From Candidatus Gottesmanbacteria bacterium (GTDB lineage: Bacteria; Patescibacteriota; Microgenomatia; UBA10105; UBA927), in NCBI GenBank assembly GCA_963714095.1, contig OY970230.1, positions 268,114-332,113 of the forward strand: a DNA stretch of 64,000 bases, read 5' to 3'. The notes beneath the pieces are model-generated. The model saw only the letters and a program-made list of their open reading frames with translations, was not told the origin of the DNA and searched no databases. The position numbers and the translations under genes were made by a program. Below are positions 9,375-41,030 of the stretch, in pieces (position 1 is the stretch's first letter; the number at the start of each line of letters is the position of its first letter).

Positions 9375-9380
9375 GCGGAT

Positions 9381-11105: not shown

Positions 11106-11108
11106 GGT

Positions 11109-13633: not shown

Positions 13634-13652
13634 ATATGATAGTATAACGTAT

Positions 13653-23010: not shown

Positions 23011-23014
23011 ATTG

Positions 23015-25188: not shown

Positions 25189-26803
25189 ATATATAAAAAC
25201 ATACTCCGAGGGATAATAAACTTATTATGTTGCCGATTGTCCGCGCTGGCGTATCACGAAACTGCATCTGAACCACACTGGCCCATTGCGGAATAGTAAT
25301 AACCGGAAGACCGTTCTTAATTTGCGGCTTTGTATCCGTCACGTTGACAATGTAATGCCATCCAGGAAAATATGCGGTGTTTATTTTCACCGTGGTCGGC
25401 TCCTGGGCTTGAAACGCAATTTTGACGTATGTATCTGAAATCTGCTGAATATCGCTGGTATAGAGATTAGATTTCGGAATTATATCTTGGACTACGTCCT
25501 GTGGTGTTTTCGGCCTGGGCACTGCCGGCGGCAGATACTCGTCCGATATTTTAGATACCCTGAAACGGATATCTTCCGCCGTCTCAAAAGCAGCTGCAGG
25601 CCTGCTATACGTATATTGCGGAACAAACCACTTGGCCTCAACAAACAACACCAGTGCGACGCAAAAAGCTGTTATTCCGAAACGGAGTGCGGTGGGACGG
25701 AAGAAAGAAACGATCTGACTCACAACGAGTGAAATACCGAATATGGCAAACGCTAAGAATCGCCATGGGTATTGAACGTACGCAAACAACGGTAGAATAT
25801 CCCACACGGGTTTGGATATACTCAGCATAAAAAATACGGAAACCACAAAAATAATACTACCAACGGCGACCAATATTTTTACCCGCCGTTCACGAATGAA
25901 ACCAACTGCTACGCCGATAATAACAACAAGCCCGAGGAGCAAATGTACTTTCCCTACTTTAAATGACATGCCGTCAATGCAGCCGGGTGCAGATCCGCCA
26001 AATCCCCACTGCGAATTCCATAATTGGCTTAGACAAACAAAATGATTCTGAAAGTCCGCGCTGTTGCCGATGATACTTGCCACACTGGTATATTTCATTT
26101 CCAGCAGTGCAGGTAACCAGAAAAATGCGGAAAGTCCGAGCCCCAAAAGAACAACTGCCCATATTTTTTTCCATTGAGGATTGTTTATACTCAACACTAC
26201 CGCTGCAAGCGCTTCAAAAAACATCCCGACATACCCTAAAATCGTATGGGACACAATAAGTCCCGCAGTCCCTGCTGCAGCAAGAAGAATTCCTCCAACG
26301 GCACTTTTGCGCGTACAAATCCGCCAAAAACCCCACAAAATGAGCGGTAAAAATATAAGCGCGTAATATTCCCCGACGGCACCCCGCACATACGCGTCCA
26401 CGGCATGATACGGGGCAAACATATAAAATACAGAGGCGAGTATGCCCGCTGAAACACCCGCAATATCCGCTATAACCGCGTACATAGTGACACCGGCCAG
26501 TACCAACCCTGCCCCCATCATAATTTTGGTCGCTGTAAGACCTGTGAGCCCCAGCGCGTATAAAACGCCGCCTACGTAATACGGTAAAGGTCCGTAAAAG
26601 TTAAAAATCGGATAGCCGTATCCGTAGCCCAAATCCGAAACCCACCGGACAGGAAATTGTCCCTGTCGAAGTGCCCTTCCCATCTCCACCACACGGGCAA
26701 CCTGCGTATCATCGTGCATGGGAAAATACCCTGAAATACACAGGGAACGTATCATCAAAAAAGAACAGGCAAGTACGATAATCCAGCCGACAATTTTTTT
26801 CAT
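25160..26803 (-). CDS. short YfhO-like GT-C membrane protein (YGYGYP-motif subfamily)
   Basis: 547 aa. N-terminal loop: HDDTQVARVVEMGRALRQGQFPVRWVSDLGYGYGYPIFNFYGPLPYY. C-terminal YFPGW...domain. It is a tandem paralog of the next gene. Confidence 0.55.
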   Translation of the reverse strand: MKKIVGWIIVLACSFLMIRSLCISGYFPMHDDTQVARVVEMGRALRQGQFPVRWVSDLGYGYGYPIFNFYGPLPYYVGGVLYALGLTGLTATKIMMGAGLVLAGVTMYAVIADIAGVSAGILASVFYMFAPYHAVDAYVRGAVGEYYALIFLPLILWGFWRICTRKSAVGGILLAAAGTAGLIVSHTILGYVGMFFEALAAVVLSINNPQWKKIWAVVLLGLGLSAFFWLPALLEMKYTSVASIIGNSADFQNHFVCLSQLWNSQWGFGGSAPGCIDGMSFKVGKVHLLLGLVVIIGVAVGFIRERRVKILVAVGSIIFVVSVFFMLSISKPVWDILPLFAYVQYPWRFLAFAIFGISLVVSQIVSFFRPTALRFGITAFCVALVLFVEAKWFVPQYTYSRPAAAFETAEDIRFRVSKISDEYLPPAVPRPKTPQDVVQDIIPKSNLYTSDIQQISDTYVKIAFQAQEPTTVKINTAYFPGWHYIVNVTDTKPQIKNGLPVITIPQWASVVQMQFRDTPARTIGNIISLLSLGVCFYIYDKRKKAIS

Positions 26804-28329
26804 GAACGACGCCTCTTGATAATTACCGCTATACCATACCAGATCAGAAATCCTAATGAAATATTATCCGCCAAGAATCTGGAAATAGTCTCCCGAAATC
26901 CTGCAACCAACCGGTGGGTTCCCTGCGGCACAGGAACACGGATAAGACCCTGAGGATTTTTATAATCAATAAGCGCTGGGGAATCGTCCACAGTGACCCC
27001 CCAACCGGGATAATACACCGTATTTATTTGTACAATGCTGTTTTCGTCCGCGTGAACAATGACATCAATAGACTGTGTGGATACTTTTCTGAATTCAAAC
27101 GTGCCGGCGCCGTCATAAAAAATAAGTCTTTGGTATGCGTGTTGGGTAGGAAGCTGACTGACCCATATGGGCATATATTCGTTCTGTACTGTAGTTGTTG
27201 CCTCATTCGTAGTGTAATACCCTTCGGGCAGGTCAGTATACTGAATCTTCTGCAGCGACGACACAACTGACCATACTCCTAATCCTGCAAACACCAGTAT
27301 CAGCAAAAACCGAACGATGGAATGCTGATTCTCCAACACATACGCGATGAGCCAACACCCGATAAAAATAGTGACGGATAAAAATCGGTACGGAAATTGA
27401 ATAATATGTACCAACAGACTAGACCGCCAAATGAAAGCGCTAACCGGCAAGACCATAAAAAGAGTGATGAGAAATAAAACAAGAAAAAACGATTTTTCCC
27501 TCTTCAGGTGTTTCCCTGTGAATAATGCGACGGCAGCAGCAATAATTGTTGAAAATCCCAACAACATCATGTTAGATTCGCCAATAAAATACGAAGCGGG
27601 ATCGGCAACCTGTACCGAGTCAAATACGACGTATTTGCGCTCATACAGCGCCGGAAACCAAAAAAACATCACCATGCCGATCCCTAAGAAAAACATGAGC
27701 CAAAAATCGCTCCAGCGCCCGAGTACAGTAATATACAAAACATAAAATCCCAAGAATAACACCGCCAGCGTATTATGACTCACAATAATCAACGATACGG
27801 CAAGGGCCAACAACCATGGTTTTTTTGCTGCAATCGAATACAATCCCATAGCAGCCCATGCAAGCGCCAGCACCTCTCCGACTGACCCTCGGGAATACAT
27901 ATCAAAGAGAAGATATGGAGCACTTACAAAACACAGTGCGCCAACCATACTGACAAGCATCCTGAAATATCGCTTCAACCATAAAAAAGTAAACAGAACG
28001 CCGATAAGAACGGAACCCGCCATAATAATCTTGACACTGGCAACAAATGGAAACCCGGCAATATGAATGAGCGATCCGAGATACAAATAACCCGGATACA
28101 GAAAATTGGCGACAGGATACCCGTACCCGTAATTTAATCTTCCCAAGAAGCGGACGGGAAATTGTCCTTCACGCAAGCTCTGAAAGAAAGCGCTGAGGCG
28201 TATGATCATCCATCCGCCATCATCCGATACAAAAAATCCCTGTCGCATGAGAGGAAAAAATACTGCAAACGCACCCGCCAAAAGTACGAGAAGAAACACA
28301 ACAAAAAGGATACTATGATTCCGTTTCAT
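26800..28329 (-). CDS. short YfhO-like GT-C membrane protein (YGYGYP-motif subfamily, paralog)
   Basis: The ORF is trimmed to MKRNHSILFVVFLLVLLAG (ATG at 28329). Motifs: SDDGGWMIIRLSAFFQSLREGQFPVRFLGRLNYGYGYPVANFLYPGYLY and a C-terminal YYPGWGVTVDD. There are ATGA overlaps at both ends. Confidence 0.55.
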   Translation of the reverse strand: MKRNHSILFVVFLLVLLAGAFAVFFPLMRQGFFVSDDGGWMIIRLSAFFQSLREGQFPVRFLGRLNYGYGYPVANFLYPGYLYLGSLIHIAGFPFVASVKIIMAGSVLIGVLFTFLWLKRYFRMLVSMVGALCFVSAPYLLFDMYSRGSVGEVLALAWAAMGLYSIAAKKPWLLALAVSLIIVSHNTLAVLFLGFYVLYITVLGRWSDFWLMFFLGIGMVMFFWFPALYERKYVVFDSVQVADPASYFIGESNMMLLGFSTIIAAAVALFTGKHLKREKSFFLVLFLITLFMVLPVSAFIWRSSLLVHIIQFPYRFLSVTIFIGCWLIAYVLENQHSIVRFLLILVFAGLGVWSVVSSLQKIQYTDLPEGYYTTNEATTTVQNEYMPIWVSQLPTQHAYQRLIFYDGAGTFEFRKVSTQSIDVIVHADENSIVQINTVYYPGWGVTVDDSPALIDYKNPQGLIRVPVPQGTHRLVAGFRETISRFLADNISLGFLIWYGIAVIIKRRRS

Positions 28330-29837
28330 ACCTTGCGTGCAGGAGGAATGATTTGATAGAGACGTAAATAGACGTTCACTGCGTTGCCCTTTTGATATTG
28401 CGCAATGAGCTTCAATGGCCAAGCAGGAATATTTTGTATCTGATTAAACACAATATAGGTAGGGTGGTCCTTCGCTTGAGAAAGCATCTCTGACGTCGGC
28501 TCTGCCGGCATGGGATAGACACCCTGAATTTTCATATTCGGATTATCGACGAGATACAGTTCGATTGCATATGGTAGCAAACCAAACGTCCCGTCCGTAT
28601 ATACGGTAACTTTCCCTTTTTCCGATTGGGCAAGCAAAAAGACATTTACTTGGGATACACCCCAACCCGACGGCCAATTATCTATATATTGACCCGCATC
28701 TGCCTCGGGAATCGGCGCATAGAGCGGGTTGACGATAATATAATAATCAGTGTAGATGCTTCCGAACAACAGCACGGCCAACAGTACCCACCGCCAAACT
28801 GATCCCTTAAAATAATCCCATACCCATCGCATGGTGATGGCGGCCAAAATCATAAGCGGAATAGTCATGAACAGGATAAAACGCGGATAGAGTACCCTAC
28901 CATCCAAGGCAAGGGCAAAAAATGGCGCGAACCACCAACCCAACAGGACTAATTTTTCTGCCGGCCGCTTCCATAGGGAAAAACCGGCCAACATCGCCGC
29001 GACAAAAATCGGCCAAGTTAAATAATGAATAGCCCAGTCAAATAAACCATGGATATTTCCTAAAAGAAAATTAAACGGATGTGTAAGCCACTGGCGGAAC
29101 GTATACACAAATACGGCGTCTTTCTCCCCGACCATAGCATATAAAGGTGACAACCGCAGCACACTATACATAAGCTGTGAAATAACTGCTGCAATAATGG
29201 TTAATCCTATCCAACGGAACAGTCGTCGGGTCCTCCCATCGCGCTGCCAATCAAACAACAAAAGGGTTCCCGGTAACATATATAGACTTAAAAATCCTTC
29301 CGTTTTATTCAGCATTCCTAACCCAAGCCCTAATCCTAAGAGTAATGCGACGTCCAACCGTACGCGACGAACCAACAATATTGCCAGATATAGATTCCAA
29401 ATAGAAAGGGTTGCGGTGAGCGAATCATAGAGCGCCATGCGGTCATAAACCAATCCGAAAGGAATCAAAACGTACAGGAGGCTGGCGATAAATCCTAGCT
29501 TTTTACTCCGAAACAATTCATTCGCTGTAAGATAGATACCGATGGCCGTAAAAAACCCAGCCATCACGGATACCAACCGGCCGGCCATAAGCGGATCGCG
29601 GAAAATACGCAAAAATACCATCGTAATCCAGGTAAACAACGGCTGCTTTCCGTCAACCAGCGAGATAAACCGCCAGTTTGCATCCCGGCTGCCTATTTGG
29701 GACCACCGGATATAAATCGCCTCATCGGTAAATATCGGGAGCTTCGTGAGGTTTGTAAGCCTGGTAACCGCGTAAAGGGCGGCAAGACCGGCAGCAAGAA
29801 GCAACATTTTCCCCCACCCACGCTTGAATATGGCCAT
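28326..29837 (-). CDS. GT-C membrane glycosyltransferase, GT39/ArnT-like
   Basis: The ORF is trimmed to MAIFKRGWGKMLLLAAGL (ATG at 29837). Motifs: FTDEAIYIRWSQIGSRD and ...GKQPLFTW. It is polytopic. Confidence 0.55.
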   Translation of the reverse strand: MAIFKRGWGKMLLLAAGLAALYAVTRLTNLTKLPIFTDEAIYIRWSQIGSRDANWRFISLVDGKQPLFTWITMVFLRIFRDPLMAGRLVSVMAGFFTAIGIYLTANELFRSKKLGFIASLLYVLIPFGLVYDRMALYDSLTATLSIWNLYLAILLVRRVRLDVALLLGLGLGLGMLNKTEGFLSLYMLPGTLLLFDWQRDGRTRRLFRWIGLTIIAAVISQLMYSVLRLSPLYAMVGEKDAVFVYTFRQWLTHPFNFLLGNIHGLFDWAIHYLTWPIFVAAMLAGFSLWKRPAEKLVLLGWWFAPFFALALDGRVLYPRFILFMTIPLMILAAITMRWVWDYFKGSVWRWVLLAVLLFGSIYTDYYIIVNPLYAPIPEADAGQYIDNWPSGWGVSQVNVFLLAQSEKGKVTVYTDGTFGLLPYAIELYLVDNPNMKIQGVYPMPAEPTSEMLSQAKDHPTYIVFNQIQNIPAWPLKLIAQYQKGNAVNVYLRLYQIIPPARKV

Positions 29838-29844
29838 ACTCAAA

Positions 29845-31002
29845 TTATACCTGAGGCCGCCTTGCGGGGCAAATGAGTTTATGGACCGCAACAATACCAA
29901 TTGAAAGAATCACAGGAATGACGGCCACCCAAAATTTTAGGGTTTGCACTGGAGGGTTGTAGTTACCGAAGTAAAAAAACGGTGCGTAGGTCAAAAGTAA
30001 ACCTAAGGACAGACCCGATCCAACAATTAGCGCCCATTCAAGCGAGGGCAATAAAGCATAAAACGGCACGAGCCACACGACATACCATCCGAGTATTTCC
30101 CGCTGGGTGCCAACTAACAGGAAACCGATAATCATCACCCACAGCGCAATCTTCCGCTGCCAACCGACAAAAAAGACAGGAAGAATAAATATTGTCATGA
30201 GCTTCGCTGCAACGGATAACGCAAGAACAAAAAACGAAGCCCATCTTTTTTTAATTAAATACAGATAGTACGCGATCATGACCAAAGCCATCATAACCAT
30301 GTCATTATGTCCACTCACAAGTGTTTCAAAAATCACCAGAGGGTTAAGGGCAAATATCGCCATACCCATAAATTTTTGATCCGGTTCAAGTTTAGAAAGA
30401 ATTTTGCCGATAAAAATAATCGTCAGAACGTAGCATGCAGCAACAAGTATTTTTATATTCCACATAATTGCCAAAAAATAGCCAAAACCCAGTACGTACG
30501 CGGGGAGCGTAAGGAGAATCCAAAACGGCGTATAGGCGCTGGGTAAATGCGTCCAGTGCATAAACGACAACCATGGTTCCACGCCGGTGAACTGGAGCGG
30601 AATGACGGTGTAGGGATTTTTCTGATACAACACGACCGTTTTAGCGGTAAACATATAGTTAAACATGTCATAGGAAAATGCGGGGTATGAAAATATAAGA
30701 ATCGCAGTCATAATACCGACGGTCCACCAAAAAATCCTCATGGATATTGTTTTTTTCCGCACTGCATTCAGAAAAAATCCATATAAAATAAAAAATACGG
30801 CAACAAGAACGAGATAGATAGTTGTGGAAAGCGGCCGGTTAAAATAGCCGATATATTGAAAACTTTTCTCAAGAAGTTGGTAAATACTTGCCCGCGAAAG
30901 CGTAAGACTTAAATCTACCTGCGTATAGGAATATAAAAATAACCCGAGAGCCGATACTGCATAAAGAATCGGCAAAAGAATAGTGTTTTTATTTCGTTTC
31001 AT
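29845..31002 (-). CDS. polytopic membrane protein, putative GT-C glycosyltransferase (DUF2029/GT87-like)
   Basis: The ORF is trimmed to MKRNKNTILLPILYAV (ATG at 31002, overlapping the TGA of the next gene). It has about 11 TM helices, the motif FSYPAFSYDMFNY and no soluble domain. Family assignment is tentative. Confidence 0.45.
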   Translation of the reverse strand: MKRNKNTILLPILYAVSALGLFLYSYTQVDLSLTLSRASIYQLLEKSFQYIGYFNRPLSTTIYLVLVAVFFILYGFFLNAVRKKTISMRIFWWTVGIMTAILIFSYPAFSYDMFNYMFTAKTVVLYQKNPYTVIPLQFTGVEPWLSFMHWTHLPSAYTPFWILLTLPAYVLGFGYFLAIMWNIKILVAACYVLTIIFIGKILSKLEPDQKFMGMAIFALNPLVIFETLVSGHNDMVMMALVMIAYYLYLIKKRWASFFVLALSVAAKLMTIFILPVFFVGWQRKIALWVMIIGFLLVGTQREILGWYVVWLVPFYALLPSLEWALIVGSGLSLGLLLTYAPFFYFGNYNPPVQTLKFWVAVIPVILSIGIVAVHKLICPARRPQV

Positions 31003-31751
31003 TGATACAATCCCCGCCATGCATTCATACGGATTTTAAGAATATCAGCAAATCCCTGTATTGAATCGATAACGGGATTCACGCGGCGCGTCTCGACATA
31101 ATGCCATTCCACGGGTACTTCTTTAATTTTATACCCGAGAATTCTCGCCAGAAACAGCATCTCTATATCAAATCCAGCAGTTACCATTGACCCGCTGACT
31201 GCATGGCGATTCCCATATAATCTGAGGCGATGAAAAATATCGTGAGCGACGGGAGCACGGAACGCTTTAAATCCGCACTGCGTATCCACGATCCCGTGAA
31301 GACCTAAAATCAAACTCCGAAGTGTCATGAATCCCCGTGCCATAACGCGCCGCGTAAGAGGAGCACCCTGACGCCGTCCTCTTCTGGAACCGATAACCAC
31401 GTCATACCCTTTTTCAAACCAGGGCAGCAATTTTGTTAACTCTGCAATCGGTGTCGCCTGGTCAAGGTCGGTAAACAACACTAATGTACCGCGGCTCGCG
31501 AGCATTCCGGTAATAACCGTCGATGCTTTTCCCTGATGAGGATTATGGATGACTGAAAACCCGCGGTTTACCTGTACAAATGAGTCCAAGAGATCCCGTG
31601 TTCCGTCTGATGATCCGTCGTCCACGATAATTGCTTCCCATTGATAGTGTTGGTGTTCCAAATATTTGGATACCTTATCGAGCGCCCCCAAACGGATATT
31701 GGTTTCTTCGTTGTATGCCGGAATAACCACTGATAAATCAATTTTCGCCAT
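30999..31751 (-). CDS. family 2 glycosyltransferase, polyprenol-phosphate sugar synthase-like
   Basis: 250 aa. Motifs: LSVVIPAYNEETNIRLGALDKV, IIVDDGSSDGT and FTDLDQATP. Confidence 0.8.
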   Translation of the reverse strand: MAKIDLSVVIPAYNEETNIRLGALDKVSKYLEHQHYQWEAIIVDDGSSDGTRDLLDSFVQVNRGFSVIHNPHQGKASTVITGMLASRGTLVLFTDLDQATPIAELTKLLPWFEKGYDVVIGSRRGRRQGAPLTRRVMARGFMTLRSLILGLHGIVDTQCGFKAFRAPVAHDIFHRLRLYGNRHAVSGSMVTAGFDIEMLFLARILGYKIKEVPVEWHYVETRRVNPVIDSIQGFADILKIRMNAWRGLYQ

Positions 31752-31752
31752 A

Positions 31753-33339
31753 TTAAACTCCAGTATAGTGCACCAGCCTGAATATTTTCACAAAAGGCAC
31801 ACTCCATTCTCCGGTAATCTCCGCCCGCCCGAACCCTGCAATTTCCCACAACGAATTCCCAAGAGGCTGACAATCGGACAACTCGCAAATCACGATAAGC
31901 TGATCCGTCACCGTCGTGCGTTTTGGATCTACCTGATTATTTTCTATTGTAACGGGCGCGCGCTGCGCGATTTCAAAAAAATATCGGTAGGTATAATCAG
32001 AATTTCCGCTGGCCAGAAGCGCAAAATTAAACGGTTTTCCGCCGGTATGGGCAAGCGCCGTTTCGGCAATCTGCCGCGCCTGAGCCAACTGATTGTTCGG
32101 AGAATAGAGAAACGGCCTTCCCTGCCAGTTAAAAAACAGGAGCCCTCCCCAACACAGCAATGCAACGACTGCCCCAGCCCGAGTTTTCCCGACTGCAAAC
32201 AATACGATACCGATCAGCAAAAACGGTAATGTAAATGCGATGCCGAAATAATAATCATAAATTGCCTTTTGATAAAAACAAAACAAAATGATCACTGTGG
32301 TAAACCAGATAAGCAATAATTGTGCTGCGTGATAGAACCGTGTTTTTTCTTCCTCGGTTTTCCCCTGTGTCAGCCATATAAATACGGACGAAAGAAACGG
32401 AATTTTTGAGGCGACCAAGACGCCAAGAAATAGAAAACTGATGAATATTGTTGTCCGCGTTCCGATAAACCAGGCATACAATTGCCACGCCGGCAATGAT
32501 TTCCATAACGCCCCATCCGGTAACCGATACAGGAGGCGCCCGAATAACCGAAAGAGAACATCGTCCATCGTGGTGAAGAAACCCGGAGAAACCCCAGTAT
32601 CTTTACCGGCCAAAAGAAACCGGATGACGGACTGGGTATTGGGAAACCCGTGGCGAACCTCAAATGCCAGAAACGGAGAATACCCAATAAGAAAACCGAA
32701 AAATACCCATAACACACTCTTGAAAAACGGTAATGTTTTCATGTTCAGCAGCAACCAAATACCCGTCACGACAAACAGGAACAGGAATAAATAATGAAGC
32801 TGCAGCCCTATCCCAAGGACAACGCCGATCCAGAGGAGCGTCGATGTACGCTTCTTTTCAACCGCAAACCATAATAAATAAATAAGGAGCAGGGAAAAAA
32901 ACGGCACGAGATTCGGATTCCATGAGGAACGGGAATACGCAATGACCAGCGGCGAGAGTGCATATAAACTGGCGGCAACGAGTCCTACCCATGGGCTTAC
33001 AAAATCTTTCCCGACCTTAAAAACAAGACAAACGGTCGCAATACCGAAGAGGGCTACCATGATGGCGGGCCCGACCGGATTTAATTTCCATGCCCATAAA
33101 AACGGGAGCATGAAATAATAATAGATAGGACCGAGGAAAAATCCCCCGACGGATGCCGTAGGACCCAAGAGCGTAAACTTATGGTTCACGATTATATGCA
33201 TGACGACCAAAACGTCACGCCCTTCGTCTCCCAAAAACGTCATATAGCCGGATATTTTATACAACCGCAGGTATGCCGCAAAACCGAGAATAATGATGAG
33301 CGGAACCAGCCACCACCGGTGTTTTAGTTCCTTTTCCAT
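31753..33339 (-). CDS. GT-C membrane glycosyltransferase, GT39/ArnT-like
   Basis: The ORF is trimmed to MEKELKHRWWLVPLIIILGF (ATG at 33339). Motifs: YLRLYKISGYMTFLGDEGRDVLVVMHI and GPIYYYF. Confidence 0.6.
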   Translation of the reverse strand: MEKELKHRWWLVPLIIILGFAAYLRLYKISGYMTFLGDEGRDVLVVMHIIVNHKFTLLGPTASVGGFFLGPIYYYFMLPFLWAWKLNPVGPAIMVALFGIATVCLVFKVGKDFVSPWVGLVAASLYALSPLVIAYSRSSWNPNLVPFFSLLLIYLLWFAVEKKRTSTLLWIGVVLGIGLQLHYLFLFLFVVTGIWLLLNMKTLPFFKSVLWVFFGFLIGYSPFLAFEVRHGFPNTQSVIRFLLAGKDTGVSPGFFTTMDDVLFRLFGRLLYRLPDGALWKSLPAWQLYAWFIGTRTTIFISFLFLGVLVASKIPFLSSVFIWLTQGKTEEEKTRFYHAAQLLLIWFTTVIILFCFYQKAIYDYYFGIAFTLPFLLIGIVLFAVGKTRAGAVVALLCWGGLLFFNWQGRPFLYSPNNQLAQARQIAETALAHTGGKPFNFALLASGNSDYTYRYFFEIAQRAPVTIENNQVDPKRTTVTDQLIVICELSDCQPLGNSLWEIAGFGRAEITGEWSVPFVKIFRLVHYTGV

Positions 33340-34442
33340 ATTATTTTTGAATACATAACGTAATTCCAAATAAGAAGAAGCGCAGTTCCCAAAAGAAAGA
33401 AAATGAAATACTGCCGGTCACCGAAAACCCGCACACCAACCCAGATCATCCCCGTCTGTATGACAACAACGCCAAACGCGCTGGTTACATAAAACTGCAG
33501 GAGCTTCGCGAGATATTGTCTGATACCGGAAATCTTACTGTGTTTAAATGTCCAGAGATTATTGAGATTAAAATTTGAAAAGATGGCCACTGCTGCTCCC
33601 GTAAGGTTTGCCCATGTAGCCGACCAATTCGCGTTATGCAAAACTATTAAAATAACTGCGTTAAGAATAAATCCTATGCCTCCGACTACGAGAAATTTTC
33701 CGAATGACCCTGTCATAATTTCCTGAATTTTTGTTACCGCTATATATTTATACGTATTGAAAATATACTCCGCAGGCGCAATCTTCGAGTGTCCGAATCG
33801 TCTGTCGGTAAAGTGTATCGGAACCTCGACAATATGTGCTCCGTCATGAGCGGCGCTGTGAAGAAACGCAATTTGAAACACATAGCCGCTGTATTCTTTC
33901 ATCTTTTCCTTATTATCCACATAATACTTTTTGGTATACGCGCGGTATCCGCCGGTCCAATCATGAATCCCCAGATGCCACAATCCGAACCGTACGATAC
34001 TGTTGCCTACTACGCTGTATATTTTGCGGATAAATCCCCAATTGTCCGGTATGGATCCGCCCGGGATATACCGGCTGCCGACAACAAAATCCGCCCCGTC
34101 ATCGATCGCCCGTAAAAATTCCGGAACTGAAGCAGGATCATGGGACAAATCCGCATCCATCTGAAGCAGAATATCTGCATTCAGATTCCTGACTGCATAG
34201 GTCATTCCCCGCAGTAACGCTTTCCCTAAACCCTCCTTTTTCGCTGTAATAAGATATACGTTACCGTGTGACTTCTGATATTCTTTCACGAGATTGCCAG
34301 TACCATCGGGAGACATATCATCAACAACGACATAGGATACGCTGTGGCGTTTTACATCTTTACATGCCGCCGCCAGCTTATCTAAAAGCACAATAATATT
34401 CTCTCTTTCGTTATATGTGGGAATAATAACGACAACCTTCAT
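33324..34442 (-). CDS. family 2 glycosyltransferase (dolichyl/polyprenyl-phosphate mannose synthase-like) fused to a C-terminal GtrA-like 4-TM domain
   Basis: The ORF is trimmed to MKVVVIIPTYNERENI (ATG at 34442). GT2 motifs: VVVDDMSPDGT and LQMDADLSHDP. C-terminal region: KFLVVGGIGFILNAVILIVL...AVAIFSNFNLNNLWTFKHS, matching the GtrA-family signature. Confidence 0.75.
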   Translation of the reverse strand: MKVVVIIPTYNERENIIVLLDKLAAACKDVKRHSVSYVVVDDMSPDGTGNLVKEYQKSHGNVYLITAKKEGLGKALLRGMTYAVRNLNADILLQMDADLSHDPASVPEFLRAIDDGADFVVGSRYIPGGSIPDNWGFIRKIYSVVGNSIVRFGLWHLGIHDWTGGYRAYTKKYYVDNKEKMKEYSGYVFQIAFLHSAAHDGAHIVEVPIHFTDRRFGHSKIAPAEYIFNTYKYIAVTKIQEIMTGSFGKFLVVGGIGFILNAVILIVLHNANWSATWANLTGAAVAIFSNFNLNNLWTFKHSKISGIRQYLAKLLQFYVTSAFGVVVIQTGMIWVGVRVFGDRQYFIFFLLGTALLLIWNYVMYSKIIWKRN

Positions 34443-34452
34443 ATGGTTTGGC

Positions 34453-35412
34453 TCAAACGCGGGCGCGCCAATAGTTGAGGAGGTCCTCCATCGTTTTTTT
34501 GAAGGGGATTTCCGGTTTCCAACCGGTTTTTGCAACAAATTTACTGTTGTCTCCGAGTAGTACCGGAACATCCGAAGGACGCATCCGGGATTGGTCCGAC
34601 TGGATCTTCACTTTTGTTTTGGAGAATGACAACAGAATGTTAAGCATGTCGCCAATTTTTATCGTGGTTCCGCTGCAGATATTATAGACATCACCGGGAT
34701 CGCATTTCTCCGCCGCAACAACATATCCTCTCACCATATCGCGAACGTCGGTATAATCACGGCTGGCCATGAGGTTTCCGACATGAATAACCGGTTCCTG
34801 TCTGCCTTTTTCTATCAATGCAATCTGTTTGGCAAAATTAGATTCCGCAAAGGTATCACCGCGCCTGGGCCCCGTGTGATTAAACCCGCGGGTCCGGACA
34901 ATCCGGATTTTGTATGACTGAAAATATTGATACCCCAAATAATCCATCGCGAGTTTTGACACCGCGTACGGTGACAGGGGCCGAAGCGGATTGGTTTCCT
35001 TGATAGGTAATTCGTCCGGATGCACCAACCCGTATTCTTCACTGGAACAGGCTATTTGAATAACAGGGTCAATGCCGACCTGACGAACCGCTTCAAAAAG
35101 ATTTGCCGACCCTACAATATTTGTTTCCAGCGTCACAGAGGGCGAAACCCACGAGGTCGGGACAAAGGACTGCGCGGCGAGATGAAATATGTAATCCGGT
35201 TTTATGCGTGAAATCGTCGCGTAGAGACTGTGTGTATCCAAAATATCCGCATCCTCCAGATGAAGTTTATTGATAATGGATTCTATATAATCCGTTTTGC
35301 TCCTGGACCGTATGAGTCCGTATACTTCAAACCCTCGGGAAAGAAGCAGTTCTGCTAAGTGACTTCCGACAAATCCCGCTATACCTGTAATAAATGCTTT
35401 TTTTGCTGCCAT
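34453..35412 (-). CDS. extended-SDR NAD(P)-dependent sugar-nucleotide dehydratase/reductase, GDP-mannose 4,6-dehydratase (Gmd/Rmd) family
   Basis: 319 aa. The N-terminus has FITGIAGFVGSHLAELLLSRGFEVYGLIRSRS. The catalytic region has SPYAVSKLAMDYLG and FNHTGPRRGDTF. Whether it is Gmd or Rmd cannot be settled from sequence alone. Confidence 0.6.
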   Translation of the reverse strand: MAAKKAFITGIAGFVGSHLAELLLSRGFEVYGLIRSRSKTDYIESIINKLHLEDADILDTHSLYATISRIKPDYIFHLAAQSFVPTSWVSPSVTLETNIVGSANLFEAVRQVGIDPVIQIACSSEEYGLVHPDELPIKETNPLRPLSPYAVSKLAMDYLGYQYFQSYKIRIVRTRGFNHTGPRRGDTFAESNFAKQIALIEKGRQEPVIHVGNLMASRDYTDVRDMVRGYVVAAEKCDPGDVYNICSGTTIKIGDMLNILLSFSKTKVKIQSDQSRMRPSDVPVLLGDNSKFVAKTGWKPEIPFKKTMEDLLNYWRARV

Positions 35413-35430: not shown

Positions 35431-36729
35431 TCACATTCTGCCCATACCGTAATACATGAAACCCAACGCTTTCACTTTAACCGGTTCATAGATATTCCGG
35501 CCATCAAACAATACAAGCGTCCTCATGCCCCGGGCCAGTCTCACCAAATCTAATTGCTGAAATTCATTCCACTCCGTTACAACTGCGACCGCATCTGCCC
35601 CTGTAGCCGCCGCATACGCATCCCGGGCAAAAGAAACGGAAGAAGGGAGCAGTCGTTTCGCGTTTCCCATAGCTACAGGATCATACGCAACCACTTTTGC
35701 TCCCCGTTTGAGAAGCTCACTGATTATATAAATGGAGGGGGCTTCGCGCATATCGTCCGTATTGGGCTTAAACGCAAGCCCTAATACGGTAATTCGTTTA
35801 CTTTTCAGATGATTGTTAAAGTGATGGGCTATTTTTTCAACAAAATTTTCAGCTGTCTTTCTGTTAATTTCATCAACGGCTTTCAGTAAGCTAAAGTCGT
35901 ACCCGTATTGCTGGGCAATCGCAATAAGCGCCTTTACATCTTTAGGAAAACAGCTCCCGCCGTATCCAACTCCGGCATACAGAAAACTTCGCCCAAGCCG
36001 TTTATCCAACCCGACCGCTTCCAGGACATATTCTGCGTCGGCACCTACTTTTTCTGAAAGCATGGCGATTGCGTTGGCAAAAGAAATTTTGGTGGACAGA
36101 AGCGAATTGGACGCGTATTTAATAAGCTCAGCGGTCTCCAGATTACAAAGGACTGTTTTCCCGTTGATGGGTTTATGAAGTTCGAGAAGTAATTCCCGGG
36201 CCCTATCTGATGTCGTCCCTATAACCACGCGGTCGGGATGCATCGTATCGTCAATTGCGGACCCTTCGCGCAGAAATTCCGGAACCGAGGCAATGGCAAA
36301 GGAGGCTCCTGGCTGTTTGAACTTGTTAAGGATGTCTCCAACCTTTTTGTTGGTACCCGGGGGCACCGTGCTTTTGGTTACCACAACTTTGTATCCTTCA
36401 AGCACCTTTGCTATACTCTCGGTTGCGGCAAACACGCTTGAAAGATCGGCCTCACCGCTCACCTTCGGAGGAGTTCCGACACAAATAAAAATGATGGTCG
36501 CAGGAGTGACTGCTTCCTTATAATCCAGAGTAAATTTGAGCCTACCCGCATCGACGTTCCTTTTCACCAGCTCCGCAAGCCCGGGTTCAAAAAACGGAGT
36601 AATGCCTTTTTTTAAATTCTCAATTTTTTCCCGTGTGTGACCGACCACCCAAACGGTATTCCCCAAATCCGCAAACACCGATGCGGTAACGAGCCCGACA
36701 TATCCGTGACCAATGAATGTAATAGTCAT
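35431..36729 (-). CDS. ugd: UDP-glucose 6-dehydrogenase / nucleotide-sugar dehydrogenase
   Basis: 432 aa. The N-terminus has MTITFIGHGYVGLVTASVFADLGN. A catalytic Cys context (GGSCFPKDV) is present, consistent with a UDPG/GDP-Man dehydrogenase family member. Confidence 0.75.
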   Translation of the reverse strand: MTITFIGHGYVGLVTASVFADLGNTVWVVGHTREKIENLKKGITPFFEPGLAELVKRNVDAGRLKFTLDYKEAVTPATIIFICVGTPPKVSGEADLSSVFAATESIAKVLEGYKVVVTKSTVPPGTNKKVGDILNKFKQPGASFAIASVPEFLREGSAIDDTMHPDRVVIGTTSDRARELLLELHKPINGKTVLCNLETAELIKYASNSLLSTKISFANAIAMLSEKVGADAEYVLEAVGLDKRLGRSFLYAGVGYGGSCFPKDVKALIAIAQQYGYDFSLLKAVDEINRKTAENFVEKIAHHFNNHLKSKRITVLGLAFKPNTDDMREAPSIYIISELLKRGAKVVAYDPVAMGNAKRLLPSSVSFARDAYAAATGADAVAVVTEWNEFQQLDLVRLARGMRTLVLFDGRNIYEPVKVKALGFMYYGMGRM

Positions 36730-36735: not shown

Positions 36736-37608
36736 TTATTTTATCACACTTTCCTGTCGCTTTACTTCAACAATTCCTTCCGTGAACGAATGTATGACAA
36801 CACCGAGTGCTTTAATTTTATCATTCGTGAGTACCGCATACTGCGGGGTTGGCGCGCGGTTGCTAAACATTTCTGCAAATGCCGTTTTAACGACAAGCGC
36901 TGTATCGCACCCGAATACATCCGCAATCGTTTTAGCCGCTTCAAACGGGGAAAGAGAACTGCCGACCACGTGGTATATCCCGTTTGCTCCCAACCGGACA
37001 AGTACACGAAGGGCACGCCCGATATCATCTATAAACGTCGGGGCGAATATTTGATCCGCAGGAGCCGCAACCTGTTGGCGCGACAGCATCCTTTCAAGCA
37101 TTTTATGAACAAAGTCTTTTTTCCCAACGGGATGCGCGCGGTACGGATTGGAAATACGGATCACGAGCCCCAGGTTCCCCAATGCCAATACTCGTTTGGC
37201 ACCCTCCGACTTGGTCAGGGCATACCAGCCCAAAGGGCTCGGCACATCGTCTTCCGAATATGATTTCTTTTTCCCATCAAATGCGTAATCCGTGTCGATG
37301 TACAGAAGTTTTTTTCCGAGCTTCCGGCAATTATCCGCTATGTTTTGCGTAGCTAGGACGTTTACTTTCCATGCCGTACTCTTTTCTGCCAAGCCGCGTT
37401 CTTTTTCTGCCCCCTGCACGTCTGTATAGGCTGCCATATGGAATACCCACGGGGCATCTGACTTGGCAAAATACATATCAACACTCTTCTTATCGGTAAT
37501 ATCAACGCCGGTTTCCAGGCTTAAATTTTCAAAGGTGAAATCAGGCGAAAGCAATTCCGTCACGCGGGAACCAACTAATCCCGATAATCCGGTTCCCAAT
37601 ATATTCAT
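36736..37608 (-). CDS. rfbD: dTDP-4-dehydrorhamnose reductase
   Basis: 290 aa. MNILGTGLSGLVGSRV and an RmlD-like substrate-binding region. It is adjacent to rfbB/rfbC/rfbA. Confidence 0.7.
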   Translation of the reverse strand: MNILGTGLSGLVGSRVTELLSPDFTFENLSLETGVDITDKKSVDMYFAKSDAPWVFHMAAYTDVQGAEKERGLAEKSTAWKVNVLATQNIADNCRKLGKKLLYIDTDYAFDGKKKSYSEDDVPSPLGWYALTKSEGAKRVLALGNLGLVIRISNPYRAHPVGKKDFVHKMLERMLSRQQVAAPADQIFAPTFIDDIGRALRVLVRLGANGIYHVVGSSLSPFEAAKTIADVFGCDTALVVKTAFAEMFSNRAPTPQYAVLTNDKIKALGVVIHSFTEGIVEVKRQESVIK

Positions 37609-38621
37609 GATGCCGCTCCGTATTGTTTTTTGTAGTATGACTGATATGCCCCGCTTTTAACTTCCCGCCACCATGACTCGTGCATTTTATACCATTCAAT
37701 AGTCCTTGTAATCCACGTATCAAAATCATACAAAGGCTTCCACCCTAATTCCTTCTCAATTTTTGACCAGTCAATTGCATACCGGCGGTCATGACCCGGG
37801 CGATCTTTGACAAACTCTATGAGTGATTCGTCACCACCCAACTTCTTTAAAATTATACGGACAACCTCAAGATTACTGATATCCTTCGTCAAACCACCGA
37901 CACAGTATGTTTCCCCGACTTTTCCACTAACGAGTACGGCTTCAATTGCACGACAGTGATCTTCAACATACAGCCAGTCCCGCACATTTTTGCCGTCGCC
38001 GTACACCGGAACTTTTTTCCCTTCCAGAATATTGGTAATCGCCAGCGGTATGAATTTTTCCGGGAAATGATACGGACCGAAATTGTTAGAGCAATTCGTA
38101 ATCGTAACCGGTAAACCGAATGTATGATGGTACGCACGTACCAGATGATCCGAACCGGCTTTACTTGCTGAATAAGGGCTTTTGGGGTCATACGGTGTTC
38201 GTTCACTAAATTTACCCGAATCCTTAAGTTGTAGTGACCCGAATACTTCATCTGTCGATACATGGTGAAACCGCGAGACTTTAGCATTAAGGGCTGCGTC
38301 CAACAACACCTGAGTCCCCAGGACATTCGTTTTTACAAATGGCGCCGGATCATGGATAGACCGGTCCACATGACTTTCTGCCGCAAAATGGACAACAACA
38401 TCAACACCCTCCACTACATTCCGAACGGTATCTGGATCACAAATATCCCCATGGATGAATGTGTATCGGGGATTTCTCTCGACAGACACGAGATTTTCTA
38501 AATTTCCCGCATACGTAAGTTTATCCAGATTGACGATGGAATCGTCCGGATGGTTGGCTATCCAGTAGAGAATAAAATTTGACCCGATGAATCCAGCGCC
38601 TCCTGTAACTAACAATTTCAT
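37605..38621 (-). CDS. rfbB: dTDP-glucose 4,6-dehydratase
   Basis: The ORF is trimmed to MKLLVTGGAGFIGSNF (ATG at 38621). Motifs: HFAAESHVDRS and YSASKAGSDHLVRAY. ATGA overlap with rfbD. Confidence 0.85.
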   Translation of the reverse strand: MKLLVTGGAGFIGSNFILYWIANHPDDSIVNLDKLTYAGNLENLVSVERNPRYTFIHGDICDPDTVRNVVEGVDVVVHFAAESHVDRSIHDPAPFVKTNVLGTQVLLDAALNAKVSRFHHVSTDEVFGSLQLKDSGKFSERTPYDPKSPYSASKAGSDHLVRAYHHTFGLPVTITNCSNNFGPYHFPEKFIPLAITNILEGKKVPVYGDGKNVRDWLYVEDHCRAIEAVLVSGKVGETYCVGGLTKDISNLEVVRIILKKLGGDESLIEFVKDRPGHDRRYAIDWSKIEKELGWKPLYDFDTWITRTIEWYKMHESWWREVKSGAYQSYYKKQYGAAS

Positions 38622-38641
38622 AAATATATTTTCAAATTGAT

Positions 38642-39118
38642 TTACGTAATATTTTTGTTGGTAATCGGTACTCCCTGCACCCAATCGTAACCGATTGTAG
38701 GGTCATCATAACGAATTCTGCCTTCTTCGTCTTTTGAATAGATACCGCTCGTGACGTACACAAGATCGGCCGGACCCTCGATTACTTTCAACCCATGCGC
38801 CACCCCCGGCGGAATCTTGATAATTTTGTTTTTTCCCTCGGACGAACCGATGGTAAACTCATTGAGTTCTTTATACGTCTGTGACTTCTCGCGTTTATCA
38901 AAAAGAGCCATTTTAATTGTGCCACGCACAACATACCACCAGTCCACCTGTGTTGTATGGATATGCCATGCTTTGACGACTCCAGCAAGCATAAACGAGT
39001 GTGAAACCTGTCCGAATCCTTCGGCAAAAAATGTGTCGGTCACCCGTATCATTTCCTCAAAAAATCCCCGCTCATCAGGGTGTCTGACAAGATCTTTTAC
39101 AACGACCCCGTCAATCAT
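38642..39118 (-). CDS. rfbC: dTDP-4-dehydrorhamnose 3,5-epimerase (cupin)
   Basis: 158 aa. Motifs: HPDERGFFEEM and AWHIHTTQVDWWYVVRG. It is a short form. Confidence 0.8.
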   Translation of the reverse strand: MIDGVVVKDLVRHPDERGFFEEMIRVTDTFFAEGFGQVSHSFMLAGVVKAWHIHTTQVDWWYVVRGTIKMALFDKREKSQTYKELNEFTIGSSEGKNKIIKIPPGVAHGLKVIEGPADLVYVTSGIYSKDEEGRIRYDDPTIGYDWVQGVPITNKNIT

Positions 39119-39855
39119 AAACGCCCCTCTTTCACACGCCGCTCGACTTCTATGTTGGCGCGAAGAAGTTCATCAAATGACGTCCCTGCGTCGATCCACC
39201 AATCGATGATATCGCACATAAGTTTACCCTCTTTAAGATAGACATTGTTCAAATCCGTCACTTCCAATTCCCCCCTTGCAGACGGCTTTAATTTCCGTAT
39301 ATGCTCAAATACTTTACCGTCATAGATATATACTCCGATCTGTGCAATATCGGACTTTGGATGTAAAGGCTTCTCTTCTATTGAAAGCACGGTTCCTTTC
39401 TTATCTATCTCTATAACACCGTACTGTCTGGATTTGGTATCCAGATGGACTCCGAACACCATTGCCCCTTTACCGGAGGTTTCAAAGCGCTTAATTGAAG
39501 ACTTCAGATCAAAATTAAAAATATTATCACCCAACATAACAAGAACCGGTTCATTGTCGTCGGCGAATTTTTCTGCCAATGCTATTGCCTGGGCTATACC
39601 GCCTTTTGAATCTTTCTGTACGGCATAATATAAATGAAGCCCGAATTCCTCGCCGGCATTCAATAAACTGGCAAAATGACCGGCGTGATCCGGAGACGAA
39701 GTGACAAGCACCTCCGTGACTCCCGCCTTTGCCATAGCCGCCAGGGGATAATAGACCATCGGTTTGTTATAAATAGGCAATAAATGTTTATTGGTAACTA
39801 AGGTCAACGGACGTAAACGGGTCGCCATACCTCCAGCCAAAATGACACCTTTCAT
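39115..39855 (-). CDS. rfbA: glucose-1-phosphate thymidylyltransferase-like sugar nucleotidyltransferase (short form)
   Basis: 246 aa. MKGVILAGGMATRLRPLTLVTNKHLLPIYNKPMVYYPL is a strong RmlA-type N-terminus. The protein is shorter than the canonical ~290 aa. Confidence 0.65.
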   Translation of the reverse strand: MKGVILAGGMATRLRPLTLVTNKHLLPIYNKPMVYYPLAAMAKAGVTEVLVTSSPDHAGHFASLLNAGEEFGLHLYYAVQKDSKGGIAQAIALAEKFADDNEPVLVMLGDNIFNFDLKSSIKRFETSGKGAMVFGVHLDTKSRQYGVIEIDKKGTVLSIEEKPLHPKSDIAQIGVYIYDGKVFEHIRKLKPSARGELEVTDLNNVYLKEGKLMCDIIDWWIDAGTSFDELLRANIEVERRVKEGRL

Positions 39856-39870: not shown

Positions 39871-40119
39871 TTAAAAACCTAACATTGTTACTAAAAGAAC
39901 GATGGCTATCGCACCTATAAGGAGATATTCTACCACAATCTTCTGATGCAGATCTTTTTGAATAGCGTGATGGATAATACCCCAAAGTGTATACGCCGAG
40001 GCCGTGATAATCCCGACAAGTAATTGGAGCGTCGTGTTCGGACTGACAACAATAAAAGTAAGGACACCTGCGGCCAAGATGGCAATAAGGACAAGAAAAT
40101 GAATAATTGTTTGCTTCAT
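39871..40119 (-). CDS. small 3-TM membrane protein of unknown function
   Basis: 82 aa and entirely hydrophobic. ATGA overlap with the downstream CAP-domain gene suggests it is co-translated. Confidence 0.4.
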   Translation of the reverse strand: MKQTIIHFLVLIAILAAGVLTFIVVSPNTTLQLLVGIITASAYTLWGIIHHAIQKDLHQKIVVEYLLIGAIAIVLLVTMLGF

Positions 40120-41030
40120 AATAGTCTCCCCCGCGATACGCCGGATATAAGAATAAACAGCGCACTCAAAAACAGCATGTGGGCAATATTATGTCCGGCA
40201 ATCCGCACGACTCGCCGGCGGCTGGCAATCCAGGCATCGACAAGAAGAATTCCCATAAGAATTCCTACAAATGCAAACACTAAATCGTGCGAAACGGTCG
40301 GGATATTAAAGAGCGGCTGCGTATTGACGCTCTCAAATCCGCTGACTGCCGGCGCAGATACGGGTTGGGCGGGTTGGACAGCAGGCACCTTAGATGTAGC
40401 CGCTTCCGCCGGTATCACGACCGGTTGAGGGGGCGGGGTGGGCGCAGCCGCTGCCAGTTCCGCGGAGGTCGCGCCGAACATCTGCACAACCAATGTGGTT
40501 TCTTCTCCGTTAAGCGTTCCGTTAACGACAGCAAATCCTACATCCCGATAATTAGATTTCAGTAAATTCTCCCGGTGGGAAGGTGAGGCCATCCACGCAT
40601 CAACCACGCCCTGACTGTCGGAAAAATTTTTCGCCAGGTTTTCTCCTGCCACCGAATACTGATATCCAGCACCGGTAATAAAATCCCACGGGGTCGCGCC
40701 AGCGGGACTGTTATGCGCCCAATAATCTTTGGCAAACATATCGGCTGCTTTATTGGCTGCAGCAACCGATAGGGTGCTGTTCAGCGTAAGCGGCGGAAGT
40801 CCTGCTTGCTGTCTCTGGGCATTGGTGTCGGCTAAAAGCTGCTGCACGTTGATGTCCGTTGCATACCCAAGGACACTAGGCGCAGCCTGATGCGCTGCTT
40901 TAATTCCCAAATTAAAAAGCGCAAACACAAGGACATACGCAAGAAGCATGTCCACATGCAGAGCTTTGGCTCTGTGATTATTGGTTTGATGGGGAATAAA
41001 AAAGTGTCTCAGGCTTGTAACAAGACTCAT
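40116..41030 (-). CDS. CAP (SCP/PR-1/YkwD-like) domain membrane protein
   Basis: 304 aa with an N-terminal TM helix. CAP signature: YWAHNSPAGATPWDFI...GENLAKNF...VVDAWMASPSHRENLL...YRDVGFAVVNG. A Pro/Ala-rich linker is followed by a C-terminal TM helix. Confidence 0.7.
   Translation of the reverse strand: MSLVTSLRHFFIPHQTNNHRAKALHVDMLLAYVLVFALFNLGIKAAHQAAPSVLGYATDINVQQLLADTNAQRQQAGLPPLTLNSTLSVAAANKAADMFAKDYWAHNSPAGATPWDFITGAGYQYSVAGENLAKNFSDSQGVVDAWMASPSHRENLLKSNYRDVGFAVVNGTLNGEETTLVVQMFGATSAELAAAAPTPPPQPVVIPAEAATSKVPAVQPAQPVSAPAVSGFESVNTQPLFNIPTVSHDLVFAFVGILMGILLVDAWIASRRRVVRIAGHNIAHMLFLSALFILISGVSRGRLL

Follow-up and report, generated by a model that had tools for sequence, protein, structure and literature searches.

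A probable bacterial polyprenyl-phosphate hexose synthase built like the archaeal type-III dolichol-phosphate mannose synthases, encoded in a glycan-assembly cluster of Gottesmanbacteria

The crossing of the membrane by polyprenyl-phosphate monosaccharides is a long-standing gap, and we know of no protein identified so far as the eukaryotic flippase of dolichyl-phosphate mannose (Dol-P-Man). GtrA proteins are called flippases on genetic evidence (PMC12992685, PMC7389260). The closest described system is the archaeal dolichol-phosphate mannose synthase (DPMS) PfDPMS, the structure of which was solved and its architecture named 'type-III DPMS' (Gandini et al. 2017, PMC5526996); without the transmembrane (TM) residues 230-352 the enzyme retained membrane targeting and full activity, and in the product complex of that study the dolichyl chain rests on TM helix 4 (TMH4). 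Later the TM domain was called GtrA-like (Gandini et al. 2026, PMC12992685), a crystal state was described in which Dol-P-Man lies upside-down in a polar pocket of Asn248, Asn277 and Arg341 gated by Phe338, and it was proposed that PfDPMS translocates its own product as well. In this article we describe a gene for a protein of this build (33324-34442) in a stretch of 64,000 nucleotides from Candidatus Gottesmanbacteria bacterium (assembly GCA_963714095.1, contig OY970230.1, positions 268,114 to 332,113), which is called the window below. With a probability of about 0.8, we read the product of this gene as a bacterial synthase of polyprenyl-phosphate hexose that has the build of the archaeal type-III DPMS and whose TM domain may aid the flipping of the lipid-linked sugar to the outer leaflet. 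Taken separately, the assignment as a polyprenyl-phosphate sugar synthase is very probable from sequence, and the flipping role, drawn by analogy with PfDPMS, is a real possibility that falls somewhat short of an even chance. The fusion is real, but its design is already known from the solved archaeal enzyme and is common in bacteria.

The earlier note on this DNA had read the open reading frame (ORF) as a family 2 glycosyltransferase (GT2), a polyprenol-phosphate-sugar synthase, fused to a GtrA-type flippase domain. Translation gives 372 amino acids and a stop codon and contains VVVDDMSPDGT, QMDADLSHDP and FSNFNLNNLWTF; the strand, absent from that note, is minus. The same 372-aa product is called by independent gene callers on identical public contigs, and the homologs, ~371-374 aa long, align from residue 1, the methionine of MKVV. 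A longer ORF starting at 34571 was rejected: it would run 119 nt into the upstream short-chain dehydrogenase/reductase (SDR) gene, the homologs lack the extension and the gene callers use 34442. Both domains were recognized by Pfam above their gathering thresholds, Glycos_transf_2 (PF00535) at residues 5-173 (E 1.5e-23, 84 bits against a cut-off of 23.3) and GtrA_DPMS_TM (PF04138) at residues 249-369 (E 1.3e-16, 61.3 bits against 26.1). Since the latter match spans the full profile (positions 1-117 of 117), the C-terminal part is a GtrA-family domain in its entirety rather than some generic anchor. The note had named a 'usual GT2 membrane anchor', lying outside the GtrA models, as the finding that would overturn its proposal; this was discarded on the strength of the full-profile match and of the 4-TM model. 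The two-domain architecture, a GT2 followed by a GtrA/DPMS-type TM domain, is thus established.

An AlphaFold model built on 47 homologs (pLDDT 89.1, pTM 0.73) shows the GT-A fold together with a pair of interface helices and with four TM helices, all of them long (pLDDT ~82-90). A PF04138 member is expected to have four TM helices, placed as two hairpins. Additionally, the GT-A fold, the DxD site and the amphipathic interface helices which characterize the GT2 polyprenyl-phosphate glycosyltransferases (DPM1, GtrB, ArnC) are all present. In a phmmer search of the PDB the best match was PfDPMS (5MLZ, E 8e-38, 133.6 bits), aligned from residue 1 to 369 of the query on residues 23-372 of the chain, while ArnC was matched over residues 2-281 only (~73 bits). 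The fold search gave the same order: the top three matches of the model were the PfDPMS entries 5MLZ, 9EP0 and 5MM1 (377-387 columns, TM-scores of 0.58-0.65), and the 2-TM enzymes ArnC and GtrB ranked behind them. The novelty implied by the earlier note could not be maintained, since the Pfam family is already named 'GtrA/DPMS, transmembrane domain' and the synthase is a full-length homolog of the crystallised PfDPMS. Its single-chain synthase-flippase stands as far as the fusion is concerned; the hypothesis had been published for PfDPMS (PMC12992685), where the flippase activity itself is a deduction. Its statement that GtrA and GtrB are separate in canonical systems agrees with E. coli K-12 yfdG/yfdH. 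The nearest relatives of the protein are DPM1 and PfDPMS and not GtrB plus GtrA, and the TM domain is distant from canonical GtrA.

For the comparison of single residues the PfDPMS numbering was rebuilt from the PDB-search alignment, in which every residue named in the papers landed on the expected letter, and residues were counted in an alignment of PfDPMS with 117 near-full-length homologs of the synthase (61-83% identity). The synthase and PfDPMS are ~33% identical (114/346 aligned positions). The equivalents of PfDPMS E12, D39, D89, D91, H94, R117, Y118, R131, S135, R202 and K208 are kept in all 117 close homologs, and so are D96, D98, S100 and H101 of the synthase. The residues for the acceptor phosphate are found as S123-R124-Y125, R139 and S143 (R, Y, R and S each in 117/117). 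The polar pocket is represented by the invariant N261, N290 and N360 (Table 1), the last at the position of Arg341, which is occupied by Asn in all type-III DPMS outside Thermococcales (PMC12992685). According to the Methods of PMC12992685 a type-III DPMS has the motif 89-DADxQHPP-96 (x = L/F/Y), Arg117 (in SRY), Arg131 and Ser135, Lys178 in KIL, the pocket residues Asn248 and Asn277, and the gating Phe338, for which Tyr is tolerated. The synthase shares with this definition the acceptor-phosphate residues, the equivalents of the two pocket asparagines and the single chain with a catalytic and a 4-TMH domain. It has DADLSHDP instead of DADxQHPP (Gln93 replaced by Ser in 117/117, Pro95 by Asp in 107/117), V188-F189-Q190 aligned with KIL (Val for Lys178 in 115/117, Gln for Leu180 in 117/117) and L357 for Phe338 (Leu in 99, Met in 14, Val in 3 and Thr in 1 of the 117); furthermore, Phe177 is Tyr in 117/117. 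Since three motifs of the published definition fail, the synthase is not a strict type-III DPMS.

The catalytic domain was also compared by BLASTP with a provisional sequence of human DPM1, which is not a database entry: identity was 36% over 232 aa (E 1e-36), and DADLSH-P and GYVFQ were aligned between the two proteins. DADLSHDP and GYVFQ are what we take to be the eukaryotic, DPM1-type catalytic motifs. By its motifs the synthase appears to join a DPM1-type active site to a PfDPMS-type TM domain.

A survey of the spread of the fusion had been suggested in the earlier note, and the fusion turned out to be common. A word-indexed protein search retrieved 6850 homologs of the synthase at E <= 1e-10, and the best 120 of these 6850 all carry both Pfam domains; where an entry among these 120 bears a name, it is 'dolichol-phosphate mannosyltransferase' or 'glycosyltransferase family 2 protein', and the source is given as Gottesmanbacteria, Microgenomates or Patescibacteria. 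When the GTDB species representatives were scanned with a 13-sequence synthase alignment, full-length relatives were found in many Patescibacteria lineages and, at 31-38% identity, in a Methanosarcinales archaeon, Spirochaetota, Oligoflexus, Methylococcaceae and a cultured Legionella sp.; relatives of the catalytic domain only were found in Actinomycetota, Chloroflexota and Acidobacteriota. The presence of both GT2 and GtrA_DPMS_TM was confirmed by Pfam in the Legionella, Methanosarcinales, Spirochaetota and Saccharibacteria proteins. Only if the strict motif definition is applied is the architecture confined, as published, to hyperthermophilic archaea. Our literature search found no description of bacterial GT2-GtrA fusions, which does not show that none exists. 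As a separate observation, several loci (L004, L006, L011, L014, L019 and others) come from metagenome-assembled genome records titled 'uncultured Gammaproteobacteria bacterium' and carry the Patescibacteria-type gene module described below, with synthases 40-57% identical to that of the window; in these titles the taxonomy is probably mislabelled.

The TM domain alone (residues 236-372) was surveyed against 1.84 billion representatives at 50% identity, which gave 501 clusters at E <= 0.001. The best 150 of the 501 included 31 with a full GT2 in front, 21 with a partial GT2, which are probably fragments, and 78 of the size of a stand-alone GtrA. In the stand-alone-sized relatives from this survey (proteins P0127-P0269) Asn stands at the N290 position in 76/84 and at the N360 position in 61/65, and in diverse fused relatives in 47/53 and 47/51, respectively. 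To exclude gene fragments, we kept only proteins of 110-175 aa that begin with Met, are covered through TMH4 and show no similarity to the catalytic or interface region; this strict filter left 39 proteins, with Asn at the N290 position in 35/38 and at the N360 position in 35/39, and N, Q or D at the N261 position in 33/34. The pocket motifs have been called absent from GtrA proteins on a comparison limited to SfX GtrA and Rv3789 (PMC12992685); judged by their sequences, the 39 strictly filtered 4-TM proteins with pocket asparagines contradict this as a general statement. E. coli K-12 YfdG reached 26.6 bits on the profile of the TM subfamily, against 88.4 bits for the TM domain of PfDPMS, and has H, S and G at the N261, N290 and N360 positions, so the pocket asparagines are lacking. 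The window domain is fused, unlike the canonical members SfX GtrA and YfdG, which are stand-alone proteins of ~120 aa beside gtrB, and by sequence it falls into a subfamily of PF04138 which has free as well as fused members and is only distantly related to the canonical phage-type GtrA.

In GtcA of L. monocytogenes, described as a putative flippase on genetic support, R95 (TM3) and N132 (TM4) are essential (PMC7389260). In the synthase the invariant N360 of TMH4 sits 12 residues before the C-terminus, and the conserved basic K313 starts TMH3. GtcA N132 would be 13 residues from the end of its protein, the length of which is ~145 aa, and it probably corresponds to N360, a match by distance from the C-terminus and not by alignment. 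We propose, tentatively and as something possible rather than probable, that the DPMS-type TM domain may mark out a large GtrA subfamily of bacteria and archaea, with some members fused to DPM1-like synthases and others free, in which the pocket lined by N261, N290 and N360 would be the path of the head group during the flipping of polyprenyl-phosphate monosaccharides. If so, what one archaeal crystal captured as flipped Dol-P-Man would be an instance of a general mechanism, and synthase-flippases of the type-III-like kind would occur widely among mesophilic bacteria (Patescibacteria, Legionella, Spirochaetota) instead of in hyperthermophilic archaea alone; in addition, small-genome bacteria would give a minimal cassette of synthase, flippase and GT-C (glycosyltransferase of the GT-C type) for the study of how lipid-linked monosaccharides cross the membrane.

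The mechanism that we envisage starts with the DPM1-type GT-A domain, which would rest on the membrane's cytoplasmic side through its two amphipathic interface helices. The hexose would move with inversion from a nucleotide sugar to the phosphate of the polyprenyl phosphate, presumably undecaprenyl phosphate; homology and conservation suggest that the DxD metal site and the Arg and Lys pair of the A-loop would serve this step, and that the phosphate triad R124, R139 and S143 would position the lipid between the interface helices. The 4-helix GtrA/DPMS-type domain would be dispensable for the transfer chemistry. By analogy with PfDPMS, the sugar-phosphate head group of the product might then enter the Asn-lined pocket between two TM hairpins and be released at the outer leaflet. 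Outside, the translationally coupled PMT_2-type GT-C and the other GT-Cs of the window, which bring the total to at least 13, would take the lipid-linked sugar as donor, the adjacent PMT_2 enzyme being its likely user.

Several points weigh against this reading. In the synthase clade the metal-binding Gln93 is Ser and Lys178, which contacts the mannose and the phosphoester, is Val, and these two deviations match DPM1 only through the provisional sequence; the gating Phe338 is lost. The global TM-scores to PfDPMS are ~0.6 with root-mean-square deviations of 6-7 A, and the relative arrangement of the TM helices may therefore differ from PfDPMS, in the crystal of which the TM hairpins are splayed by 60 degrees. 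No NCBIfam equivalog reached its cut-off with the synthase, all being far below, so that no specific enzyme name is supported, and the Ugd gene of the conserved module could indicate a sugar derived from UDP-glucuronate. The evidence for flipping by PfDPMS is one crystal state with partial occupancy (PMC12992685), no transport assay is reported for it in PMC5526996 or PMC12992685, and the flippase role of the GtrA protein Rv3789 was challenged (Kolly 2015, as cited in PMC12992685). The TM domain could also be a platform which binds the lipid carrier, or a stabilising anchor near the active site, with another protein flipping the product. This we regard as somewhat unlikely, although it agrees with the dolichyl chain resting on TMH4 of PfDPMS, with the lack of a reported flipping assay in the two PfDPMS papers, and with the presence of a Wzx/MOP-type flippase and several unassigned membrane proteins in the cluster. 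PfDPMS without residues 230-352 is nevertheless targeted to the membrane and fully active, and the domain is thus not needed for anchoring or acceptor binding; the three asparagines buried in the TM region are invariant (117/117) and are kept in stand-alone 4-TM relatives as well, where there is no enzyme that an anchor could serve; and Wzx-type flippases act on oligosaccharides linked through a diphosphate. Less probable still, the domain would serve for docking, as a scaffold that brings the partner GT-C into a synthase-transferase complex, and not as a transporter. The synthase gene overlaps that of the PMT_2 GT-C, their adjacency is conserved from Patescibacteria to Legionella, the challenge to Rv3789 points the same way, and an anchor model has reportedly been proposed for Rv3789 and its partner. 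However, 20 of 38 full-length fused loci have no directly adjacent GT-C homolog, in a count which underestimates adjacency, PfDPMS is a monomer with no dedicated partner described (PMC12992685), and the conserved polar pocket would be left unexplained. Scaffold and flipping roles are compatible and do not exclude each other.

Concerning the sugar, the most likely product of the synthase is polyprenyl-phosphate mannose or a related hexose, destined for the GT-C enzymes encoded nearby. We lean towards GDP-mannose or a deoxyhexose derived from it as the donor, because the upstream SDR is of the GDP-sugar type and the catalytic motifs are DPM1-type. The best PDB match of this SDR is 2PK3, a GDP-6-deoxy-D-lyxo-4-hexulose reductase (E 1e-82, full length), the next matches are all enzymes of GDP-mannose pathways, and the UDP-glucuronate decarboxylases follow at ~1e-21; no GDP-mannose 4,6-dehydratase was seen in the annotated part of the window. 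An ArnC/GtrB-like synthase would instead load a sugar derived from UDP-glucuronate (xylose, arabinose or galacturonate) in an Arn-like pathway of Ugd, SDR, synthase and GT-C. Ugd and one to three SDR genes do precede the synthase in most Patescibacteria loci, and ArnC provides the best NCBIfam match (73.7 bits) and the next-best PDB matches. We consider this unlikely, since the ArnC model match is far under its cut-off of 529 bits and covers the 2-TM-equivalent part only, PfDPMS scores 133.6 bits against 73 for ArnC, the catalytic motifs are DPM1-type and differ from the DADLQ-PP form of ArnC/GtrB, and the adjacent SDR is closest to the GDP-sugar enzymes by the values given above. The SDR was also observed to lie beside a complete dTDP-L-rhamnose gene set (rmlABCD), so that rhamnose-type sugars of the D as well as the L series may be in use in the cluster.

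The synthase gene sits in a long, mostly co-directional glycan-assembly cluster (Table 1). The SDR gene ends 10 nt before the synthase start, and the start of the PMT_2 GT-C gene overlaps the 3' end of the synthase gene by 16 nt; this GT-C had no sequence match in the PDB. Across Patescibacteria the genes are found again in the order Ugd-SDR(s)-synthase-PMT_2-GT2-GT87. In 18/38 full-length related loci phmmer detected a homolog of this PMT_2 GT-C directly downstream of the synthase, which is an underestimate because phmmer missed the PMT_2 GT-C directly downstream in the Legionella locus. In this locus of Legionella sp. PATHC038 (L044, NZ_JAPHOQ010000004.1, 3917..7753), right behind the fused GT2+GtrA_DPMS_TM gene, there are genes for a PMT_2 GT-C, matched strongly at 136 bits, and for a polysaccharide deacetylase, which offers a cultivable system for the fused enzyme.

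Past the GT87/MptA-like GT-C another PMT_2 gene follows on the minus strand, and further on there are YfhO-type GT-Cs, the Wzx-type flippase, more GT2s and a GT1. The many GT-C enzymes that the earlier note had placed upstream are indeed there, at least 13 ORFs of PMT/PMT_2, YfhO and GT87 type at 972..33369; 'upstream' is valid only as lower plus-strand coordinates, and those on the minus strand, the adjacent GT-C included, are transcriptionally downstream. At least 13 GT-C ORFs in ~33 kb are a very large investment for a genome with a longest contig of ~1.09 Mb. No second GtrA-like ORF or stand-alone GtrA paralog was found in the 64-kb window. The only other relatives of the synthase catalytic domain there are two GT2s of 247 and 250 aa, both without TM domains, which match the models of dolichyl-phosphate hexose transferase, PgfS and ArnC below cut-off and may be further polyprenyl-phosphate sugar synthases without a GtrA-like domain of their own. 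Two further observations concern the sugar-nucleotide genes. The RmlC-like ORF has, besides a dTDP_sugar_isom match (E 1e-24), a Polysacc_synt_C match (E 3.4e-9), odd for a soluble cupin epimerase, which may be spurious or a problem of the ORF boundary. Just past these genes lies one whose product of 304 aa has a CAP (cysteine-rich secretory protein) domain.

Table 1. Positions in the window of the synthase, its parts and the surrounding genes.
Feature	Positions	Strand	Basis or remark
Putative GT2 + GtrA/DPMS-TM polyprenyl-phosphate hexose synthase, 372 aa, whole gene	33324..34442, stop codon included	minus	Translation; Pfam; end-to-end match to PDB 5MLZ
Catalytic domain (GT-A, cytoplasmic), residues 1-244, including the amphipathic interface helices 137-154 and 223-244	33711..34442	minus	PF00535; AlphaFold secondary structure; alignment to the provisional DPM1 sequence; conserved catalytic and acceptor residues
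GtrA/DPMS-type TM domain, residues 249-369; helices 246-270, 275-298, 307-340, 342-368	33336..33698	minus	PF04138; AlphaFold; alignment to PfDPMS TMH1-4
D96-A-D98-L-S100-H101-D102 of the metal/donor-diphosphate motif DADLSHDP	34137..34157 (P103 at 34134..34136)	minus	DPM1-type variant of PfDPMS 89-DADLQHPP-96
N261, polar pocket, TMH1	33660..33662	minus	PfDPMS Asn248; N in 117/117 close homologs
N290, polar pocket, TMH2, inside the FSNFNLNNLWTF motif	33573..33575	minus	PfDPMS Asn277; N in 117/117 close homologs
N360, polar pocket, TMH4	33363..33365	minus	PfDPMS Arg341; N in 117/117 close homologs
rmlA, rmlC, rmlB, rmlD	39855..36736	minus	
RmlC-like ORF	38642..39118	minus	
CAP-domain protein	40116..41030	minus	
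Nucleotide-sugar 6-dehydrogenase (Ugd-like)	35431..36729	minus	Three Pfam UDPG_MGDP_dh domains; NCBIfam TIGR03026, 443 bits, above cut-off; synteny
Upstream SDR, 319 aa, GDP-6-deoxy-D-lyxo-4-hexulose reductase-like	34453..35412	minus	PDB 2PK3; conserved position
Downstream PMT_2-type GT-C, 528 aa from ATG at 33339 (ORF to 33369)	31753..33339	minus	PF13231; 528 aa also called on identical contigs
GT2 of 250 aa without TM helices, conserved downstream module member	30999..31751	minus	Pfam; NCBIfam; Patescibacteria synteny
GT87/MptA-like GT-C, conserved downstream module member	29845..31020	minus	Pfam; NCBIfam; Patescibacteria synteny
GT2 of 247 aa	24445..25188	minus	
Wzx/MOP-type flippase	23015..24469		PF13440
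PMT/PMT_2 ORFs	972-2699, 7594-9318, 9381-11105, 11109-12731, 13491-14945, 28326-29900, 31753-33369		
YfhO ORFs	2672-5080, 5087-7636, 14928-17189, 18217-20475; 25160-26803		The last is a weak match
ORF of 540 aa without family assignment, within the GT-C stretch	26800-28422		

The locus opens no new question on the flipping of lipid-linked sugars, as the fused architecture and the hypothesis were already published for PfDPMS, and proteins of this kind are abundant and routinely, if vaguely, annotated. Three things are added. The fused architecture is abundant in mesophilic bacteria, contradicting its stated restriction to hyperthermophilic archaea; a bacterial clade appears to combine the DPM1-type active site with the PfDPMS-type pocket; and the pocket asparagines are common to stand-alone GtrA-sized proteins. 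Together they suggest clear mutational targets and tractable bacterial systems, for example the cultured Legionella. As regards annotation, the 'glycosyltransferase family 2 protein' entries of Patescibacteria could become polyprenyl-phosphate hexose synthases with a GtrA/DPMS TM domain.

Among the known systems PfDPMS (PDB 5MLZ, 5MM0, 5MM1, 9EP0) is like the synthase over the full length and, as the latter does, unites in a single chain a GT-A domain, a pair of interface helices and four TM helices. Common to both are the DxD, His94, SRY, Arg131, Ser135, the A-loop Arg202 and Lys208 and the pocket residues Asn248 and Asn277; at Arg341 the synthase has Asn, as do the non-Thermococcales members, and the same dual function of synthase and translocator may be proposed. 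They differ in that the host of the synthase is bacterial and, judging by the sources of the sequences, non-hyperthermophilic, hence a bacterial polyprenol would take the place of dolichol as the lipid, and in the residues Ser (for Gln93), Asp (Pro95), Tyr (Phe177), Val (Lys178), Gln (Leu180) and Leu (Phe338), all but the last essentially invariant in the clade. Eukaryotic DPM1, the catalytic subunit of type-I/II DPMS, shares DADLSH-P and GYVFQ with the synthase, as judged from its provisional sequence, and these set the clade apart from PfDPMS. The human enzyme has no TM domain and needs the separate DPM2 and DPM3, and yeast Dpm1 has a single TM helix (PMC5526996); unlike DPM1, the window synthase carries a fused 4-TM domain of the GtrA family.

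The GtrA/GtrB/GtrC systems (Shigella phage SfX; E. coli CPS-53 YfdG/YfdH/YfdI; GtcA with CsbB/GtlA and YfhO/GtlB in Listeria and Bacillus) follow the same logic of synthase, putative flippase and GT-C: a GT2 makes the polyprenyl-phosphate monosaccharide, a 4-TM protein of the GtrA family is thought to flip it, and a GT-C transfers the sugar outside the cell. GtrB-type synthases have two TM helices of their own and form tetramers. In the window the GT-C counterparts are of PMT_2, YfhO and GT87 type, and the first two components are fused in one DPM1-like chain. ArnC/ArnT, together with ArnE/F, resembles the window in that the synthase is paired with a GT-C of ArnT/PMT_2 type and genes modifying a nucleotide sugar lie upstream, and ArnC is the second-best structural relative of the synthase; unlike the latter, it has two TM helices and no GtrA domain, and the flippase ArnE/F is separate. 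Finally, the modules of the window and of Legionella PATHC038 presumably resemble the lipid A aminosugar modules LgmABC and FlmF2/FlmK/NaxD.

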